From Malacoraja senta (lineage: Eukaryota), in assembly GCA_038087875.1 (NCBI GenBank), contig CM075988.1, forward strand, positions 11,596,001 through 11,660,000: a DNA stretch of 64,000 bases, given 5' to 3'. The position numbers and the translations under genes are program-made. Each line of letters opens with the position of its first letter. Position 1 is the stretch's first letter. Below, in pieces: positions 6,370 through 58,650 of this stretch. The notes under the pieces were generated by a model. That model saw only the letters and a list, made by a program, of their open reading frames with translations, had not been told where the DNA came from and searched no databases.

Positions 6370-6940
6370 GATGGTAATCTGATGCAGCTTGATTAATGCA
6401 TCATGATGATGATAATGATGATGATAATTAAAGTTATCATTAGAAGGTGAGCACCTCTGATGTATCCCGATTTTACTAAACCAACAGCAATTAAAACAAA
6501 GTCATGCAGGATCATTAATGGCCCACCTGCATACAGCTGACAATTCCTTTGTTAAATAACCAAATAACTTCACAGATTTTAAAATGTGACCTTGCTCCTT
6601 AAAAAGATTTATATTAAGAACTTCAACAAAGTCCAGCATATCAACTTCAGTGGAAATTGTAATTATGTTTGACGTAGAGACAAGGGCATGTTTCATTGAG
6701 AAGTGTTGGCGCAGCAGTTAAGTGGCCAAACTGTAGAACTAATGGCTAGGAGGAGCACTTCAGAGTCTTGAATTCAAATCCCTACGTTGGGAAATTTACA
6801 TTCATAAGTAAATGCTTTTATTAAAAAATGTAACTAATATGATGATCTCAAATTTATCAGATTCCTTTGAAATCTGTCTGATTTGCTCATGTTCTTTGGA
6901 GATCCTCCACTCCTGGCCAAAGTCCAATTTGTTCCAAGGT

Positions 6941-7081
6941 CTTATTCTTCTTGCATATGGCGTGCACAGCCTAAACTTGTAGGACAACTTGTTCCATTTG
7001 ATCGTATTTGATTGTGCACACTGGCTTGATTGCATTCGTCGAAACAGGACGGACCACATGAAGGTTGCAATCTTCCACACC
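6941..7081 (-). mobile_element. Short retroposon with a 5' HDV-like ribozyme and (AAG)n tail, family 1
   Basis: Near-identical to 19552-19689 and to the partial copy at 17314-17380; 5' end folds as an HDV-like double pseudoknot. Confidence 0.8.
7028..7081 (-). ncRNA. Minimal HDV-like ribozyme
   Basis: GGUGUGG(P1) AA GAUUGCA(P2) ACC(P3) UUCAUGU(L3) GGU(P3') CCGUCCU(P1') G UUUCGA CGAA(J4/2) UGCAAUC(P2'); one P1 mismatch. Confidence 0.75.
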
Positions 7082-7691
7082 AGACATACTGCCTGACCCA
7101 CAGTTACTGTAGCACTTGGTGTCTTTTTTTGATGAATTGAACCTCAGTTCATAAATCGCTAAAAGTAGCTGAAAGTGAGTTGGCATAATAAAAGGTGACA
7201 CAGTGTGTTTCTCAACCATTGTTGATCCAACCTAATGCTGTAATTAATTCATCTTGATATTTGCCTTGAGTCTATTTTGTCCACTCATCAGTGCAAGGCT
7301 CCATCTTGACATCCTTATGAGTTGCAAATTTGTTAAAAGTGTCAGTTTTTTTTTTAATGAACAGTGTATACCCTCCTGAGATTGTAAATATGTTATCCAC
7401 ACAATAATTGCATTTGAAGCTTTTGCACAATTGACTTTGAATGAATGTTTCTGGGAAAATTTGCAAACGAGTAAAAATGTGGGTTAAAAATAGAACAGCT
7501 AATGGTGTGTGGTTGCAAGACCAAGGTCAATGATTCAGCCAGGCCACCTTCATTAGAATGAATGTTCTGTCATGCCAGAAAGGTTAACGCATTAGTTTAT
7601 CTGTTCTCAAATGTCGAACACCTGATTTGCAATTTCATAACATTCCTCTTGTTTGCTTTTCCATGCTGCTATCTGGTAGATAAGAAAGGAA

Positions 7692-7913
7692 GGTAGACAA
7701 AAGTGCTGGAGAAACTCAGTGGGTGCAGCAGCATCTATGGAGCGAAGGAAATGGGCAACGTTTCAGGCCGAAACCCTTCTTCAGACTGGAGAAGGGTTTC
7801 AGCCCAAAACGTTGCCTATTTCCTTCGCTCCATAGATGCTGTTGCACCCGCTGAGTTTCTCCAGCATTTTTGTCTACCTTTGATTTTCCAGCATCTGCAG
7901 TTCCTTCTTAAAC
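7692..7913. mobile_element. Full palindromic hammerhead element (family B)
   Basis: Inverted arms of ~90 bp with opposed cores; 14-bp TSD AGATAAGAAAGGAA at 7678-7691 and 7914-7927. Confidence 0.88.
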
Positions 7914-17313: not shown

Positions 17314-17380
17314 AACAAAAGATCAAAGAGAACAAGTTGACCTACAACTTTAGGCTGTGCACGCCTTGCGCAAGAAGGAA
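17314..17380 (+). mobile_element. 5'-truncated copy of the HDV-ribozyme retroposon family 1
   Basis: AAGATCAAAGAGAACAAGTTGACCTACAACTTTAGGCTGTGCACGCC.TGCGCAAGAAGGAA equals the 3' half of the 6.9 and 19.6 kb copies. Confidence 0.85.
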
Positions 17381-17684
17381 AAGTGATGCACAATCCTTTA
17401 TGTGATTAATAGATTCTGTGTTGACAATTTGCCATTTATTCTGGGCATTAAAATGAAAAGAAATGCAGATAATACAAACACAATAATGTTTTGTTGAAAC
17501 ACTAATGCAATTATTGCAACAATCTCAAGCAACTATTTGTTAAAGTTAGTTTCACTCTCTTCACAGAATAAGTTACTTTAATGGAATAGAGATTATTGAA
17601 TTCAATTACATGTAATAATAGAATATAGTGTCCAGATATGTTTACTTATGAACAAGCTACTTTCTGTACATTGTACATTGAAAA

Positions 17685-19250: not shown

Positions 19251-19414
19251 GTTGTGTAGAAAACAACTGCAGATGCTGGTTTATACTGAAGATAGACACT
19301 AGGTGCTGAAGTAACTCAACGAGTCAGGCAGCATCTCTGGAGAAAAATGTTGCTTTCCTCCAGAGATGCAGTGTGACCCGCTGAGTTACTCCAGCACTTT
19401 GTGTCTATCTTCTC
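19251..19414. mobile_element. Palindromic family-A element with its centre deleted
   Basis: Inverted arms; short direct repeat GTCAATG on both flanks. Confidence 0.75.
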
Positions 19415-19489: not shown

Positions 19490-19760
19490 GTTATAAGTGA
19501 AAGGAGCAGAATTAGGCCATTCGGCCCATCAAGTCTACTCCGTCACTCAATCTTCTTCTTCTTGCGTATGGCGTGCACAGCCTAAAGTTGTAGGACAACT
19601 TGTTCTTTTTGATCTTGTTTGATTGTGCACGCCAGGTTGATTGCATTCGTCGAAACAGGTTCCACGTGAAGGTTGCAATCTCCCACTCCGTCATTCAATC
19701 ATGGCTGATCTATTTCTCCCTCGTAACCCCATTCTCCTGCCTTCTGACACCTGTCAGAGG
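19490..19760 (-). mobile_element. CR1 3' terminal fragment hosting the nested HDV-ribozyme element
   Basis: GGAGCAGAATTAGGCCATTCGGCCCATC...TTCAATCATGGCTGATCT, as at 42.7 and 54.1 kb. Confidence 0.8.
19552..19689 (-). mobile_element. Short retroposon with a 5' HDV-like ribozyme (damaged P3'/P1') and (AAG)n tail, family 1
   Basis: Direct repeat ACTCCGTCA(C/T)TCAAT at 19537-19551 and 19685-19699; (CTT)4 at the left end. Confidence 0.85.
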
Positions 19761-25593: not shown

Positions 25594-25949
25594 GGAGAGT
25601 CTAGGACTAGAGGTCATCTGGGACGACAGATGGCGCAATGGGCTAAGTGTTCGGCTGGCAACTGGAAGGTAGCCGGTTCGAATCCCGCTTGGAGTGCATA
25701 CTGTCGTTGTGTCCTTGGGCAAGACACTTCACCCACCTTTGCCTGCGTGTGAATGTGTGTAAATGTGTGTGAGTGATTGGTGGTGGTCGGAGGGGCCGTA
25801 GGCGCAGATTAGCAGCCACGCTTCCGTCAGTCTGCCCCAGGGCAGCTGTGGCTACAGAAGTAGCTCACCACCACCGAGTGTGACTGAGGAGTGAATGAAT
25901 AATGCGATGTAAAGCGCCTTGAGTATTAGAAAGGCGCTATATAAATCCC

Positions 25950-36170: not shown

Positions 36171-37312
36171 GGGGTTCAATCCTGACTTCCCGTGCTGTCC
36201 CTGTGGAATGTGTGTGTGGCTGCATGGGGTTCCACTGGGAACTTTAACGTCCTCAGCATAACGCAAGGTGATGGACTCACTCTGTGGGACAGGCAGCATC
36301 TCCAGAGGACATGGATAGGCAACGTATTGGGTTGGTACCTTTCTTCAGGCTGAATTACAATTCAGATTATAAATCCTGACTCTTGGAGTAATCTTTCCCG
36401 ACATCTGTCAACTATTTTCCCCCTTCTTTAAGACATCACTTAAGACTTATTTGATGAAACCTTTGGCTATCTGCCTTGATACATCCTGCTTTTTTTCTTC
36501 TTGATAATGGTTCTATGAGACAGCATGTAGATTTTGTTCCATTAAACTGGCTACATAAATAGAACCTGTTGTTTGTTTTGTTCAAATCTCTGTAGATCAA
36601 ATAACCTGCAGCGTGGAACAGCTACAGGTACAAATAGACGATCTATGTCCATTAGAATAACATCGCTTTTTGTGGCTTCGACAACAGGTTTAACCTTATC
36701 GCTCAATTTCTAAAGCACTATACCACTATTATAAATGTTAGAAATCTGTTGGTACTATCTAAGTTTTTTAAAAACAGAAACAGGGGCCCTTGTGGTGCTA
36801 AAATAGCCTTTTGAAATTGTGCCAGTTCTTTCAAATAGCTTGCACACTGCACCTCTGTCCTATATTACACCACTTAAATAAAATAATCAGAATTAGGCTT
36901 TGTGGAAATAAGAAAAAAAATTACAAGAGTTTCAAAGATACAACAGTGTTTTATTTGTCACATGTGCAACTGCACCGTGAATTTATTTGCCTATATTACA
37001 CATGCAGGCACCAACATTATTGGCGCTATTATTCAAAGTCCAGTCACCCAACGACCCAACATGGTGCAATGATACTTAAATCCAAACACCTAAGGCTCGA
37101 AATAGGATTTGTTCCGAACTGTTTTTTCAGTGCCAGTTGTGCATCAGTTTTACCCTGAATAGATCACAGTAGAATCACTTCTGGATAAGATGGTTTCCAT
37201 AGTAAAACTCAGTCGGGCACTTCTATCATCCACATGAGCATACTTGATGATCGCCTTGCACCTGAGGCACAACTAGTGTCATCACCTTGCCGATTTTTAA
37301 TCTCCTTAACAT

Positions 37313-37480
37313 TCTTCTTCTTATCGTGTCCACACACAAGATTAGAAGTTGTTGAGCCAGAGCTGAACACACTTCTCGGCATCTGCATACAATAGTGTCT
37401 GTCTTGTCACTTCTTGTGCGTGGTGGTGAAAAGATTGGTGGAAACAGGGCCGCGACGTGAATGCTCTTTTCTTGATCCCC
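37313..37480 (-). mobile_element. Short retroposon with a 5' HDV-like ribozyme and (AAG)n tail, family 2
   Basis: (CTT)3 left end; imperfect direct repeat TCCTTAACAT/TCCTTATTAT at 37303-37312 and 37481-37490; same architecture as family 1. Confidence 0.75.
37428..37480 (-). ncRNA. Minimal HDV-like ribozyme (family 2)
   Basis: GGGGAUC(P1) AA GAAAAGA(P2) GCA(P3) UUCACGU(L3) CGC(P3') GGCCCU(P1') G UUUCCA CCAA UCUUUUC(P2'). Confidence 0.72.
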
Positions 37481-43694: not shown

Positions 43695-46600
43695 TCAGTA
43701 TCCTGTACCTGCCTTCTCTCCATACCCCCTGATCCCTTTAGCCACAAGGGCCACATCTAACTCCCTCTTAAATATAGCCAATGAACTGGCCTCAACTACC
43801 TTCTGTGGCAGAGAGTTCCAGAGATTCACCACTCTCTGTGTGAAAAATGTTTTTCTCATCTCGGTCCTAAAGGATTTCCCCTTAATCCTTAAACTGTGAC
43901 GTCCTGGACTTCCATAACATCGGGAACAATCTTCCTGCATCTAGCCTGTCCAACCTCTTAAGAATTTTGTAAGTTTCTATAAGACCCCCCCTCAATCTTC
44001 TAAATTCTAGCGAGTACAAGCCGAGTCTATCCAGTCTTTCTTCATATGAAAGTCCTGACATCCCAGGAATCAATCTGGTGAACCTTCTCTGTACTCCCTC
44101 TATGGCAAGAATGTCTTTCCTCAGATTTGGAGACCAAAACTGTACGCAATACTCCAGGTGTGGTCTCACCAAGACCCTGTACAACTGCAGTAGAATCTCC
44201 CTGCTCCTATACTCAAATCCTTTTACTATGAATGCTAACATACCATTCGCTTTCTTCACTGCCTGCTGCACCTGCATGCCTACTTTCAATGACTGGTGTA
44301 CCATGACACCCAGGTCTCATTGCATCTCCCCTTTTCCTAATCGGCCACCATTTAGATAATAGTCTACTTTCCTGTTTTTGCCACCAAAGTGGATAACCTC
44401 ACATTTATCCACATTATACTGCATCTGCCATGCATTTGCCCACTCACCCAGCCTATCCAAGTCACCTTGCAGCTTCCTAGCATCCTTCTCACAGCTAACA
44501 CTGCCCCCCAGCTTCGTGTCATCCGCAAACTTGGAGATGTTGCATTCAATTCCCTCGTCCAAATCATTAATATATATTGTAAATAGCTGGGGTCCCAGCA
44601 CTGAGCCTTGCGGTACCCCACTAGTCACTGCCTGCCATTCTGAAAAGGGCCCGTTTACTCCTACTCTTTGCTTCCTGTTTGCCAGCCAGTTCTCTAGCCA
44701 CATCAATACTGAACCCCTAATACCGTGTGGTTTAAGTTTGTATACTAATCTCTTATGTGGGACCTTGTCGAAAGCCTTCTGAAAGTCCAGATATAACACA
44801 TCCACTGGTTCTCCCTTATCCACTCTACTAGTTACATCCTCGAAAAATGCTATAAGATTCGTCAGACATGATTTACCTTTCGTAAATCCATGCTCACTTT
44901 GTCCAATGATTTCACCACTTTCCAAATGTGCTGCTATCCCATCTTTAATAACTGACTCTAGCAGTTTCCCCACTACCGATGTTAGACTAACTGGTCTGTA
45001 ATTCCCCGTTTTCTCTCTCCCTCCCTTTTTAAAAAGGGGGGTTACATTAGCTGCCCGCCAATCCTCAGGAACTACTCCAGAATCTAAGGAGTTTTGAAAA
45101 ATTATCACTAATGCATCCACTATTTCTGGGGCTACTTCCATAAGTACTCTGGGATGCAGCCTATCTGGCCCTGGGGATTTATCGGCCTTTAATCCATTCA
45201 ATTTACCTAACACCACTTCCCGGCTAACCTGCATTTCACTCAGTTCCTTCATCTCCTTTGACCCGCGGTCCCCTGCTATTTCCGGCAGATTATTTATGTC
45301 TTCCTTAGTGAAGACAGAACCAAAGTAGTTATTCAATTGGTCTGCCATGTCCTTGTTCCCCATGATCAATTCACATGTTTCTGACTGCAAGGGACCTACA
45401 TTTGTTTTAACTAATCTCTTTCTCTTCACATATCTATAAAAACGTTTGCAGTCAGTTTTTATGTTTCCTGCCAGTTTTCTTTCATAATCTATTTTCCCTT
45501 TCCTAATTAAGCCCTTTGTCCTCCTCTACTGGACTCTGAATTTCTCCCAGTCCTCTGGTAGGCAGCTTTTTCTGGCTAATTTGTACGCTTCATCTTTTGT
45601 TTTGATACTATCGCTGATTTCCCTTGTTATCCACGGATGCACTACCTTCCCTGATTTATTCTTTTGCCAAACTGGGATGAATAATTTTTGTAGTTCATCC
45701 ATGCAGTCTTTAAATGCCTTCCATTGCATATCCACCATCAACCCTTCAAGAATCAATTGCCAGTCAATCTTAGCCAATTCACGTTTCATAACTTCAAAGT
45801 TACCTTTCTTTAAGTTCAGAACCCTTGTTTCTGAATTAATAATGTCACTCTCCATCCTAATGAAGAACTCAACCATATTATGGTCACTCTTGCCCAAGGG
45901 GCCACGCACAACAAGACTGCTAACTAACCCTTCCTCATTACTCAATACCCAGTCTAGAATAGCCTGCTCTCTCGTTGGTTCCTCTACATGTTGGTTTAGA
46001 AAACTATCCTGCATACATTCCAAGAAATCCTCTTCCACAGCACCCCTGCCAATTTGATTCACCCAATCTATATGTAGATTGAAGTCACCCATTATAACTG
46101 TTTTATCTTTGTTGCACGCATTTCTAATTTCCTGTTTGATGCCATCCCCAACTCCACTACTACTGTTAGGTGGCCTGTACACAACACCCACTAGCGTTTT
46201 CTGCCCCTTAGTGTTTCGTAGCTCTACCCATATCGATTCCACATCCTCCAAGCTAATATCCTTCCTTTCCATTGCGTTAATCTCCTCTCTAACCAGCAAC
46301 GCTACCCCACCTCCTTTTTCTTTCTGTCTATCCCTCCTGAATATTGAATATCCCTGGATGTTCAGCTCCCAGCCTTGGTCACCCTGGAGCCATGTCTCCG
46401 TGATCCCAACTATATCATAATCATTAATAGCTATCTGCACATTCAACATCCACCTTATTACGAACGCTCCTTGCATTGAGACACAAAGCCTTCAGGCTTG
46501 TTTTTACAACACTCTTACCCCTTATACAATTATGTTGAAAAGTGGCCTTTTTTGATTTTTGCCCTGGATTTGTCTGCCTGCCACGTTTACTTTTCACCTT

Positions 46601-46798
46601 GTTACCTATTGCTTCTACCCTCATTTTGCACCCCTCTGTCTCTCTGCTCACACATTTAAGAAACCCACCACCTCTTATTCTCTGTTTATTATTTTTTTCT
46701 TCTTTCCCCCCTACCTGTTGGGTCTGAGTGCTTCCCTTCTCTGCCTCCTGCCTCACACACTGTCTACAAGCTTTCTCTATTTGAGTCCCTCCCCCCAA
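43695..46798 (-). pseudogene. CR1 ORF2 (APE endonuclease plus reverse transcriptase), disrupted
   Basis: EN motifs LNARS, DIVGITETW, IMGDFN, SDHN; RT motifs YLDFQKAFDKVPH, GVPQGSVLGP, KFADD; frameshifts near 46445 and 43900, stops at 45526 and 44317. Confidence 0.95.
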
Positions 46799-46803
46799 CC
46801 GTT

Positions 46804-47157
46804 CTAGTTTAAAGTCTCCGCAGTAGCCTTTGCAAATCTCCCCGCCAGGATATTGGTCCCCCTCGGGTTCAAGTGCAACCCGTCCTTTTTGTACAGGTCA
46901 CACCTTCCCCAAAAGAGGTCCCAATGATCCAGAAACTTGAATCCCTGCCCACTGCACCAGTCCTTCAGCCACGCATTAATCCTCCACCTCGCTCCATTCC
47001 TACTCTCACTGTCGCGTGGCACAGGCAGTAATCCCGAGATTGTTACCTTTGCGGTCCTTCTCCTTAACTCTCCTCCTAACTCCCTAAATTCTCCTTTCAG
47101 GACCTCTTCCCTTTTTCTACCTATGTCATTGGTACCTATATGTACCACGACCTCAGG
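46804..47157 (-). pseudogene. CR1 ORF1 C-terminal SGNH/GDSL esterase-like domain (partial)
   Basis: VVVHIGTNDIG and KKDGLHLNPRG (GxND and DxxH blocks). Confidence 0.9.
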
Positions 47158-47324
47158 ACACCATGAGACAATAAGAGAGGCAATGTATGAGAGACTGAAG
47201 CCTAGATATTGAGGTGGCAGGGTAGGTTTGTGGTGGGGAGTAGAGTAGGAAGAGTGCTGTGAGATGTGGAGGGAAGGGAAAGAGATCAGATGCCCGGACA
47301 TAACGAAAATAAATAAAATTAATA

Positions 47325-47453
47325 GGAAGGAACTACAAATGCTGGTTTACACCGACGATAGACACAAAATGCTGGAGTAACTCAGCGGGACAGGCAGCAC
47401 CTCTGGAGAGAAGGAATGGGTGACTTTTCGGGTCGAGACCCTTCATCAGACTG
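47325..47453 (-). mobile_element. Single-arm hammerhead element (family A)
   Basis: Minus strand CAGTCTGATGAAGGGTCTCGACCCGAAAAGTCACCC. Confidence 0.82.
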
Positions 47454-58248: not shown

Positions 58249-58650
58249 AGAATCTCTGGAGAGAAGGAATGGGTGACGTTTTGGGTCAAGACACTTCTTC
58301 AGACATCTGGAGGTGTATATGGAGACATAAATAGGAACAACAGATGCTGGTTTACAAAAATGGACACAAAGTGGGAAAATAACTCAGTGGGTCAGGCAGC
58401 ATCTCTAGAGAACAGGGATAGGCAATGTTCCGGGTCGGGACTCATCTTCAGACCGACCTGAAACGTCACCTATTCATGTTCTCCAGAAATGCTGCCTGGC
58501 CAGATGAATTACTCCTGTATTTTGCATCTTTTTCTGGAGGTATATGTGTTTGTTTATTTGAATGTCACAAAAATAATCAAACAATCATGCTGGATCCTAG
58601 GCTTTATAAGGAGAGACATGGAGTAGGGAAGTCACCATGAACTTTAATAA

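Follow-up and report, generated by a model that had tools for sequence, protein, structure and literature searches.

A dispersed skate retroposon with a predicted minimal HDV/CPEB3-type ribozyme at its 5' end

Introduction

SINE-1 is a 141-nt retroposon of the skate Malacoraja senta, one decayed copy of which lies on the minus strand, from 7081 to 6941, of a 64,000-nucleotide stretch of contig CM075988.1 (assembly GCA_038087875.1, positions 11,596,001 to 11,660,000 of the forward strand; hereafter the window). The element begins with a 54-nt head that is predicted to fold as a self-cleaving ribozyme of the hepatitis delta virus (HDV) and CPEB3 type, reduced by the loss of helix P4, and continues with a stem-loop body and an (AAG)n-type tail. 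SINE-1 forms a repeat family with defined limits and flanking duplications, its fold covaries, and the same genome contains homologous full-size ribozymes and an RTE-like long interspersed nuclear element (LINE) with the same tail. We consider it quite probable that SINE-1 is a promoter-less, LINE-dependent retroposon whose P4-less head cuts at its first base, G1, and whose RNA is copied by an RTE-type LINE.

Results

The SINE-1 family and the limits of its copies

The copy at 6941..7081 (minus strand) is full length and decayed, comprising ribozyme head, stem-loop body and (AAG)n tail. Read from 7081, its head is GGTGTGG-AA-GATTGCA-ACC-TTCATGT-GGT-CCGTCCT-G-TTTCGA-CGAA-TGCAATC, after which come the body and then the tail, ...CAAGAAGAATAAG, with 6941 as its last base. 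The majority sequence of the family has the head GGGGTGG AA GATTGCA ACC TTCACGT GGT CCGCCCT GT TTCGA CGAA TGCAATC, from which the window copy departs by three substitutions (G3>U, C24>U and C33>U). With 92-94% identity to the 39 other scored genomic copies, it is a dead, mutated insertion.

Two further copies lie in the window. One, at 19552..19689 (minus strand; 86.5% identity to the first), is nested in another repeat and bordered by a duplication of 15 nt that contains one mismatch, ATTGA(A/G)TGACGGAGT, at 19685-19699 and 19537-19551; a 4-nt deletion has destroyed the 3' strand of its helix P1. The other, at 17321..17383 (plus strand), is 5'-truncated near position 79, its 3' hairpin and tail being left, and no long open frame was found upstream of it.

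The host is a skate-like batoid by its RAG1, a fragment of which has 97% identity to the protein of the thorny skate, 84-88% to those of rays and sharks and ~75% to those of mammals. Across the 1.94-Gb assembly, the 141-nt query gave 2,852 first-look candidates, and the 40 that were scored, to which all identity and length figures for the family refer, are without exception 92-100% identical and nearly all full length. Exact matches to a 35-nt core that contains two Y positions number 1,882 genome-wide (964 + 918), as against 0 for the reversed control. When contigs of three public runs were aligned to the locus, thousands stacked over 6941-7082, with unrelated loose ends from 6940/6945 and 7078/7082, which are the two ends of the element.

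The starting point of copies was determined in 20 of the 40 copies that match the 3' 70-mer at 100%, chosen by their 3' half only, since selection by the entire element, as for the first 30 loci, favours full-length copies. Fourteen of the 20 start exactly at G1, with a duplication directly abutting; the remainder carry a few extra Gs ahead of G1 (2 copies), are short by 3-5 nt at the 5' end (2 copies), are cut at position 48 (1 copy) or have a 5' end too divergent for the start to be called (1 copy). Target-site duplications of ~6-15 bp, which abut G1 and follow the tail, were detected by script in 13 of the 20 copies and by eye in 4 more, and no sequence common to the copies was seen upstream of G1, either in this sample or in the 30 earlier loci. 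The copies thus begin at the base that had been predicted and do not routinely extend 5' of it. The family combines the marks of a LINE-dependent retroposon, namely duplications, 5'-truncated copies and a 3' end of the type found on a LINE of the same genome.

Two observations concern copy structure at individual loci. At L011:1501-2362, two SINE-1 copies share an identical 40-nt upstream flank and one of them stops after position 85, which points to local duplication or to an insertion inside the element. In several ribozyme families (loci L043-L051, L059 and L111:200-271), the DNA copies are one G short at the 5' end relative to what the P1 3' strand, CCCC plus U, could pair with; apparently, copying of the cleaved RNA often leaves out its terminal G, or else P1 in these families is 6 bp long and opens with a G-C pair.

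A P4-less HDV/CPEB3-type head

The initial annotation, made from the letters alone, had read the first 54 nt of the minus strand as the HDV nested double pseudoknot, with a P1 that opens on a G.U pair and has one mismatch, a perfect 7-bp P2, a 3-bp P3 with a 7-nt L3, P4 reduced to a UUCG stub, and a J4/2 of CGAA with a C at the catalytic position. The letters match exactly, and the parse stands in all but the description of the stub. The predicted module occupies 7028..7081 (minus strand), follows the order P1-J1/2-P2-P3-L3-P3'-P1'-P1.1-(P4)-J4/2-P2', and would be cleaved 5' of G1 (7081). The P1 5' strand (7075..7081; GGTGTGG here, GGGGTGG in the majority) pairs with the 3' strand at 7046-7052 (CCGTCCT here, CCGCCCT in the majority), and the window copy shows G1.U as the first pair, one U3/C mismatch and wobbles. 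The closing G1.U pair (with U36) is present in the window copy, in the majority and in all 12 alignment rows that have letters there. P2 joins GATTGCA (7066..7072) to TGCAATC (7028-7034) through 7 perfect pairs, and P3 with L3 spans 7053..7065, with ACC at 7063-7065 pairing with GGT at 7053-7055 and L3 at 7056-7062. In the majority sequence all three helices, P1, P2 and P3, pair perfectly.

The single-stranded parts follow the same pattern. The L3 of the window copy is TTCATGT, and that of the majority, TTCACGT, matches the Rfam CPEB3 consensus. U20, C22, A23 and G25 are the residues given roles in L3 of the CPEB3 ribozyme, for which a nuclear magnetic resonance study also describes a P1.1 of one G-C and one U-U pair and a 4-nt J4/2, C57-G58-A59-A60 (PMC4836649). 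In the majority UUCACGU, U20, G25 (of the metal-binding wobble) and C22 (of P1.1) are present, and the window copy differs by C24>U. The P1.1 partners in SINE-1 are G37 with C22 and U38 with U21. The segment 7035..7045 holds G37 and U38, a 5-nt linker, TTCGA, where P4 would be, and J4/2 (CGAA), whose first base, C44 at 7038, is the putative catalytic residue; C44 G45 A46 A47 follows the C-N-R-A rule, with CAAA and CCAA as subfamily variants.

Where relatives have hairpins of at least 8 bp, SINE-1 has only UUCGA (5 nt) and no P4 helix. This part of the annotation was right, and only the notion of a stub has to be given up, as the motif is not conserved (the sister family described below has UUCCA) and "5-nt linker" is the more fitting term. 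Known minimal HDV-like ribozymes do without P4, and in vitro cleavage has been reported for such forms (bioRxiv 10.1101/2023.06.13.544163).

As a first filter only, since it was composed after the sequence had been seen, we used a descriptor of the HDV core: G1..U, a 7-bp P1 in which 1 mismatch is allowed, at least 6 Watson-Crick pairs in P2, 3 bp in P3, an L3 of 6-8 nt containing a C, a G after P1, and C-N-R-A before P2'. It found 29 sites in the window and 29 loci (155 kb, both strands), all within the SINE-1 family, and when the window was dinucleotide-shuffled 60 times no site appeared.

Covariation with full-size relatives

We regard the comparison with full-size relatives as the decisive evidence for the predicted fold. 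Alignment A1 contains 17 ribozymes of six families, which are few and related, so that the number of independent events is modest. Three rows of family B and one of family D are off by one column and were kept, where they count against the structure. On the pseudoknotted structure, 95.1% of cells pair, as against 74.4% in shuffled alignments, and none of 500 shuffles reaches the observed value. Double-sided changes occur in 17 of the 26 pairs, whereas controls in which the partner was slid by 1-3 columns gave 37-47% paired cells and at most 5 double-changed pairs. Helix by helix, 94.7% of cells pair in helix 1 (both sides change in 3/7 pairs), 96.6% in helix 2 (6/7 pairs) and 100% in helix 3. 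The C22-G37 pair is present in 14 of the 17 rows, C44 is nearly invariant over the 17 ribozymes, and A46 and A47 are invariant.

The same contrast between drifting helices and constant core appears when SINE-1 is set directly against the ribozyme of the LINE described below. J1/2 (AA), L3 (TTCACGT), P1.1 (GT) and J4/2 (CGAA) are the same in both, and of the 17 helix pairs 8 have changed on both strands without loss of pairing (three in P1, three in P2 and two in P3), and UUCGA stands in for P4. The fold that the annotation proposed, with its putative catalytic C in J4/2, is in this way supported by the relatives.

Relation to the CPEB3 ribozyme

For a near-majority copy, L006, the three best plus-strand matches among 4,227 Rfam families are all of HDV type: CPEB3_ribozyme (22.2 bits, E 7.7e-4), HDV_ribozyme (19.0 bits, E 0.98) and HDV-F-prausnitzii (14.4 bits, E 1.9). 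They share one register, from G1 to the end of P2', and skip P4. The L3 and P1.1 residues named for the CPEB3 ribozyme recur in SINE-1 under identical numbers as far as position 38.

Other ribozymes of this genome are closer to the CPEB3 model. Of 59 scored candidates for Rfam CPEB3_ribozyme over the genome, 39 pass the 35-bit cut-off, the best at 64.2 bits (E 2.7e-14), and the ribozymes of CPEB3 type belong to several families (loci L031-L042 among them). The LINE ribozyme and the consensus of the CPEB3 model have the uninterrupted runs AGAAGCGUUCACGUCGCG, CCCUGUCA and UGCGAAUUCU in common. The CPEB3 ribozyme is described in PMC8233481 as never found outside mammals.

Body, tail and search for a promoter

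The 3' body of SINE-1 (6953..7027, minus strand) ends in ..CATATGC and forms an outer stem, 7013-7022 with 6959-6968, and an inner hairpin, 6984-6992 with 6974-6980 (both on the minus strand); the minimum-energy fold of a near-majority copy contains both stems. The copy at 19552-19689 displays them best, with a perfect outer stem, GGCGTGCACA/TGTGCACGCC, that encloses AAGTTGT/ACAACTT and is followed by an (AAG)4 tail, just as the annotation had described a long stem around an AAGUUGU/ACAACUU hairpin ending in (AAG)n. The body is presumed to be a recognition domain for the reverse transcriptase. The tail of the window copy, AAGAAGAATAAG (6941..6952, minus strand), is of the (AAG)n type, identical to the type of the LINE tail.

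No conventional promoter was recognised in SINE-1. ARAGORN found no tRNA there, Rfam gave no small-RNA match (tRNA, 5S or 7SL) in either the window copy or a near-majority copy, and A and B boxes, sought with consensus motifs, occur only with 3 mismatches; there is also no T4 run. The earlier statement that the element has no tRNA or RNA polymerase III (Pol III) boxes agrees with these searches.

An RTE-like LINE with a full-size ribozyme

The annotation had further suggested retroposition by a LINE with an (AAG)n tail, possibly of the RTE group, and such an element exists in the same genome. It is 3.14 kb long and begins at its first base with a full-size ribozyme (first 73 nt; e.g. L040:92-175, L039:99-3235), GGGGATC AA GGTAGAA GCG TTCACGT CGC GATCCCT GT [8-bp P4 hairpin] CGAA TTCTACC, which scores 59.7-64.2 bits on the CPEB3_ribozyme model. 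A single 940-aa frame with Exo_endo_phos and RVT_1 domains is followed by a short 3' untranslated region (UTR), an (AAG)n tail and a duplication, and copies are 97-98% alike. The 35-nt segment from P4 to P2' has 7 exact copies in the genome, a number that is expected because LINE copies are mostly 5'-truncated.

Judged on size and domain order alone, the LINE fits the RTE clade: RTE elements are ~3.2 kb long, encode an N-terminal apurinic/apyrimidinic (AP) endonuclease and a reverse transcriptase in a single frame, and end in a short 3' UTR with a microsatellite tail, and the LINE has this form. Relatives of its protein, at 46-63% identity, occur in amphioxus, sea urchins, fishes, a lizard, psyllids, moths and crabs, on contigs that are mostly 3.0-3.5 kb. 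We scanned 18 loci on unrelated metagenome contigs bearing relatives with ~50% protein identity and room upstream of the frame. Four of them have a match to RF00622 at E<0.01 just 5' of the frame, namely L095:5-84 (43.3 bits, the one over the cut-off), L097:22-111 (31.0 bits), L096:111-200 (30.5 bits) and L111:200-251 (26.5 bits). A further locus has a match of the HDV-F-prausnitzii type (L102:1269-1333; 30.9 bits, E 0.088), and no ribozyme match was found upstream of the frame in the other 13 of the 18. In L096:90-140 and L097:1-50, the P1 5' strand is seemingly split by an inserted hairpin, GGGG[GAAGG..CCTTC]TAGTC, and the CPEB3 model aligns only the last P1 bases.

Among 11 LINE relatives whose 3' ends were inspected, 8 have a terminal ..ACGA with an (AAG)n or (ATG)n microsatellite behind it. 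In the skate LINE the end is ..GACACGAAAAG(AAG)n and in SINE-1 ..CATACGCAAG(AAG)n, the latter resembling the last ~10 nt and tail of the LINE group; compared base by base, ..ACGAAAAG(AAG)n of the LINE stands against ..ACGCAAG(AAG)n of SINE-1, and the two share only the terminal ..AYACGM(A)AAG(AAG)n. Because the SINE-1 stem-loop is missing from it, the RTE-like LINE can be named only as a presumed driver of SINE-1. A search of the LINE loci, of 8 kb downstream of three other ribozyme families, of the sequence upstream of the truncated window copy, and of 20 loci from among the 40 that best match the 3' 70-mer found no LINE with that stem-loop.

The window has a LINE of its own at 43882-47346 (minus strand), whose frames encode a GDSL-type esterase, an AP endonuclease and a reverse transcriptase. 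It was considered as a partner and rejected, being of another kind, unrelated to the (AAG)n elements and with no link to the SINE-1 tail.

A second P4-less family

Family B also has a head without P4, GGGGYC AA GGAAAGA GCG TTCACGT CGC GGCCC(C)T GT TTCCA CCAA TCTTTCC, followed by ~115 nt that end in ..GAC(T/A)CGATAAG(AAG)n. The linker pattern is common to family B and SINE-1, and the helices are different yet complementary. An exact 24-mer core of family B has 1,191 matches in the genome, and the window contains a copy of ~169 nt at 37312-37480 (minus strand), with a TAAGGAG duplication and the tail ..GACACGATAAG(AAG)n. As judged from these sequences, the P4-less form persisted through the divergence of two abundant families, which argues that the form is functional.

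Other repeats of the window

Two further features of the window were noted. ARAGORN calls a tRNA-Ala (GGC) at 25623-25697 (plus strand), beside copies of a dispersed repeat (direct-repeat families D5/D7); the call may represent the head of a tRNA-derived short interspersed nuclear element (SINE) and not a gene. A very abundant hairpin-forming repeat occurs at 937-1097, 7717-7854, 19309-19391, 58398-58491 and many other places, with arms of ~95-110 nt at 85-94% complementarity. It gives sub-threshold matches to assorted microRNA precursor models and is probably a palindrome derived from a SINE or resembling a miniature inverted-repeat transposable element.

Discussion

Proposed mechanism

In the mechanism that we favour, master copies of SINE-1, promoter-less themselves, would be transcribed inside longer host or read-through RNAs. 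The 54-nt head would fold as a P4-less double pseudoknot of the HDV/CPEB3 type and cut directly 5' of G1, and this cleavage would set the exact 5' end of the template RNA. An RTE-type LINE, with the same kind of 5' ribozyme and the same kind of end, ..ACGA-AAG(AAG)n, would supply the reverse transcriptase, to which the 3' stem-loop together with ..ACGC-AAG(AAG)n would present the RNA. Target-primed reverse transcription into a nicked target would then produce the duplications of ~6-15 bp and the occasional 5' truncation. Catalysis by the P4-less form, read-through transcription and the identity of the partner LINE are the steps that we infer.

Several observations weigh against this explanation. 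The covariation comes from about six related families, in which events are few and not phylogenetically independent. L006 falls below the Rfam cut-offs, with 22.2 bits against 35 for CPEB3_ribozyme and 19 against 50 for HDV_ribozyme, and the window copy has no Rfam match, either at the gathering threshold across the window or at E<=10 in 6850-7200, because it has decayed by G3>U, C24>U and C33>U. When only nested pairs are allowed, the 54-mer folds no more stably than its shuffles (z +0.31; for the 141-mer, z -1.70), a comparison that speaks neither way, pseudoknots being outside the energy model. CpG decay, through which constraint in the master copies was tested at two sites, is asymmetric at one of them: at C44-G45 in J4/2 the harmless G45>A is seen 601 times and C44>U 303 times, the predicted direction, and at C24-G25 in L3 the two decay products are equal, at 465 and 452; this mixed outcome carries no weight in our argument. 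Finally, the 70-nt 3' stem-loop of SINE-1 has no counterpart in the RTE-like LINE, and the true partner may be another LINE.

Alternative explanations

This last point bears on the origin of the element. SINE-1 could be an internally deleted derivative of another LINE with the same ribozyme and 3' stem-loop, to which the RTE-like LINE would be only a cousin, an origin that we consider possible and somewhat unlikely. R2 SIDEs are reported to arise in this manner (PMC3414825), and both the lack of the 3' stem-loop domain in the RTE-like LINE and the presence of several other ribozyme families in the genome speak for it; no such LINE was encountered in the 20 examined of the 40 best 3'-70-mer matches, nor in the other loci examined. 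A SIDE has both ends identical to those of its parent LINE, and between SINE-1 and the RTE-like LINE the ribozyme helices differ and the 3' UTR shares the terminal motif only. An origin by deletion is compatible with the mechanism set out above, of which it alters only origin and partner.

A different objection is that the head no longer cuts. After the loss of P4 it could survive as a structural relic of HDV type, kept for binding of the LINE protein or for protection of the 5' end, with G1 set otherwise, by an unrecognised internal promoter or some other step. The sub-threshold Rfam scores and the symmetric CpG decay in L3 are in keeping with this, as is the reported binding of the R2 protein to its own ribozyme region (PMC6765202). 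A relic is, however, hard to square with the drift of the helices around a constant core, in which C44, A46, A47, L3 and P1.1 are identical to those of full-size ribozymes above the CPEB3 cut-off, a pattern that catalytic selection predicts. Furthermore, natural P4-less HDV-like ribozymes are reported to be active (bioRxiv 10.1101/2023.06.13.544163), copies start to the base at the predicted scissile bond, and neither ARAGORN nor the search for A and B boxes found a promoter motif. We regard a non-cutting head as improbable.

That SINE-1 is an ordinary Pol III SINE, whose head can be drawn as an HDV pseudoknot by accident, would suit a short, very abundant element with duplications and a LINE-type tail, but is highly improbable and already contradicted by the covariation (compensatory changes in 17/26 pairs) and by the three best Rfam matches, all of HDV type, besides the lack of a tRNA, 5S or 7SL match, A/B boxes found only with 3 mismatches, and the 0 descriptor sites in 60 shuffles.

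Meaning of a ribozyme-headed retroposon

If SINE-1 moves as we propose, the notion of a SINE widens to include an element whose sole recognisable substitute for a promoter is a predicted self-cleaving RNA. The 54-nt P4-less form, its sister family and the full-size relatives in one genome would also make a series for probing the contribution of P4.

The CPEB3 ribozyme is linked to memory, and the nearness of the SINE-1 family to it could supply the missing outgroup and a testable origin from the 5' end of an RTE element. That 39 of 59 genome candidates pass the CPEB3 cut-off, that the LINE ribozyme shares uninterrupted runs with the model consensus, and that 4 of 18 loci with RTE relatives have an RF00622 match at E<0.01 together lead us to suggest, tentatively, that the RTE-borne ribozyme lineage may include the mammalian CPEB3 ribozyme as a domesticated RTE 5' ribozyme, and that the P4-less heads of SINE-1 and family B may be the first natural minimal HDV-like ribozymes of eukaryotes.

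Comparison with known systems

It is established that RTE, R2, R4 and L1Tc elements carry HDV-like ribozymes at their 5' ends (PMC6765202, PMC3774820), and those of RTE are reported to cut at the 5' junction of the element (PMC3774820). As in RTE, R2, R4, L1Tc and baggins elements, the predicted ribozyme of SINE-1 stands at the very 5' end, so that cleavage would define the first base. Those non-long-terminal-repeat elements are described as promoter-less and as riding on co-transcripts, with microsatellite tails in RTE (PMC6765202, PMC3774820), a description that the skate LINE fits fully. Unlike these LINEs, SINE-1 has no open frame, is 141 nt long and carries a ribozyme without P4.

In its general design SINE-1 resembles the R2 SIDEs of Drosophila and NARTc of Trypanosoma cruzi, which are reported to combine a 5' HDV-like ribozyme with a 3' end used by a LINE (PMC3414825, PMC3383444); as a kind, the ribozyme-headed derivative with a LINE 3' end is already known. 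SIDEs are rare, specific for ribosomal DNA and furnished with their parent's own 3' UTR, whereas SINE-1 is dispersed in a vertebrate in thousands of copies, has a miniaturised ribozyme, and at its 3' end shares with the LINE found no more than the terminal ~10 nt and the (AAG)n tail. Our literature search, which did not extend to Ruminski 2011, Webb and Luptak 2011, Webb 2009, Dfam and Repbase, returned no vertebrate ribozyme-headed SINE, no natural P4-less HDV-type ribozyme of a eukaryote and no link between CPEB3 and retrotransposons. A dispersed vertebrate family of this design, with thousands of copies, looks new.

Short non-coding retroelements with a self-cleaving ribozyme also include the schistosome Sm-alpha hammerhead SINE-like elements and the retrozymes (PMC6765202). 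Their ribozymes belong to another class, occupy another position and process multimers or circles, in contrast to a 5' end for target-primed reverse transcription. The minimal, or theta, ribozymes of gut phages share with the SINE-1 head a double pseudoknot that is complete save for P4 (bioRxiv 10.1101/2023.06.13.544163). The theta and minimal forms of that report come from metagenomes and phages and lie near tRNAs, while the SINE-1 form heads a eukaryotic retroposon and is of CPEB3 type by sequence. The same source describes minimal forms as detected only in phage genomes and their origin as open; a natural P4-less ribozyme of HDV type in a eukaryote, as predicted here, looks new.

SINE-1 is also close to the mammalian CPEB3 ribozyme (RF00622), with which it shares L3 (UUCACGU), P1.1 (C-G plus U-U), J4/2 (CGAA) and the numbering to 38 (PMC4836649). 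The full-size skate relatives reach 35-64 bits on the CPEB3 model, as compared with 22.2 bits for the P4-less L006. The CPEB3 ribozyme is a single conserved intronic locus of mammals and SINE-1 a dispersed repeat of a skate, and the closeness of this P4-less vertebrate form to CPEB3 appears to be new.

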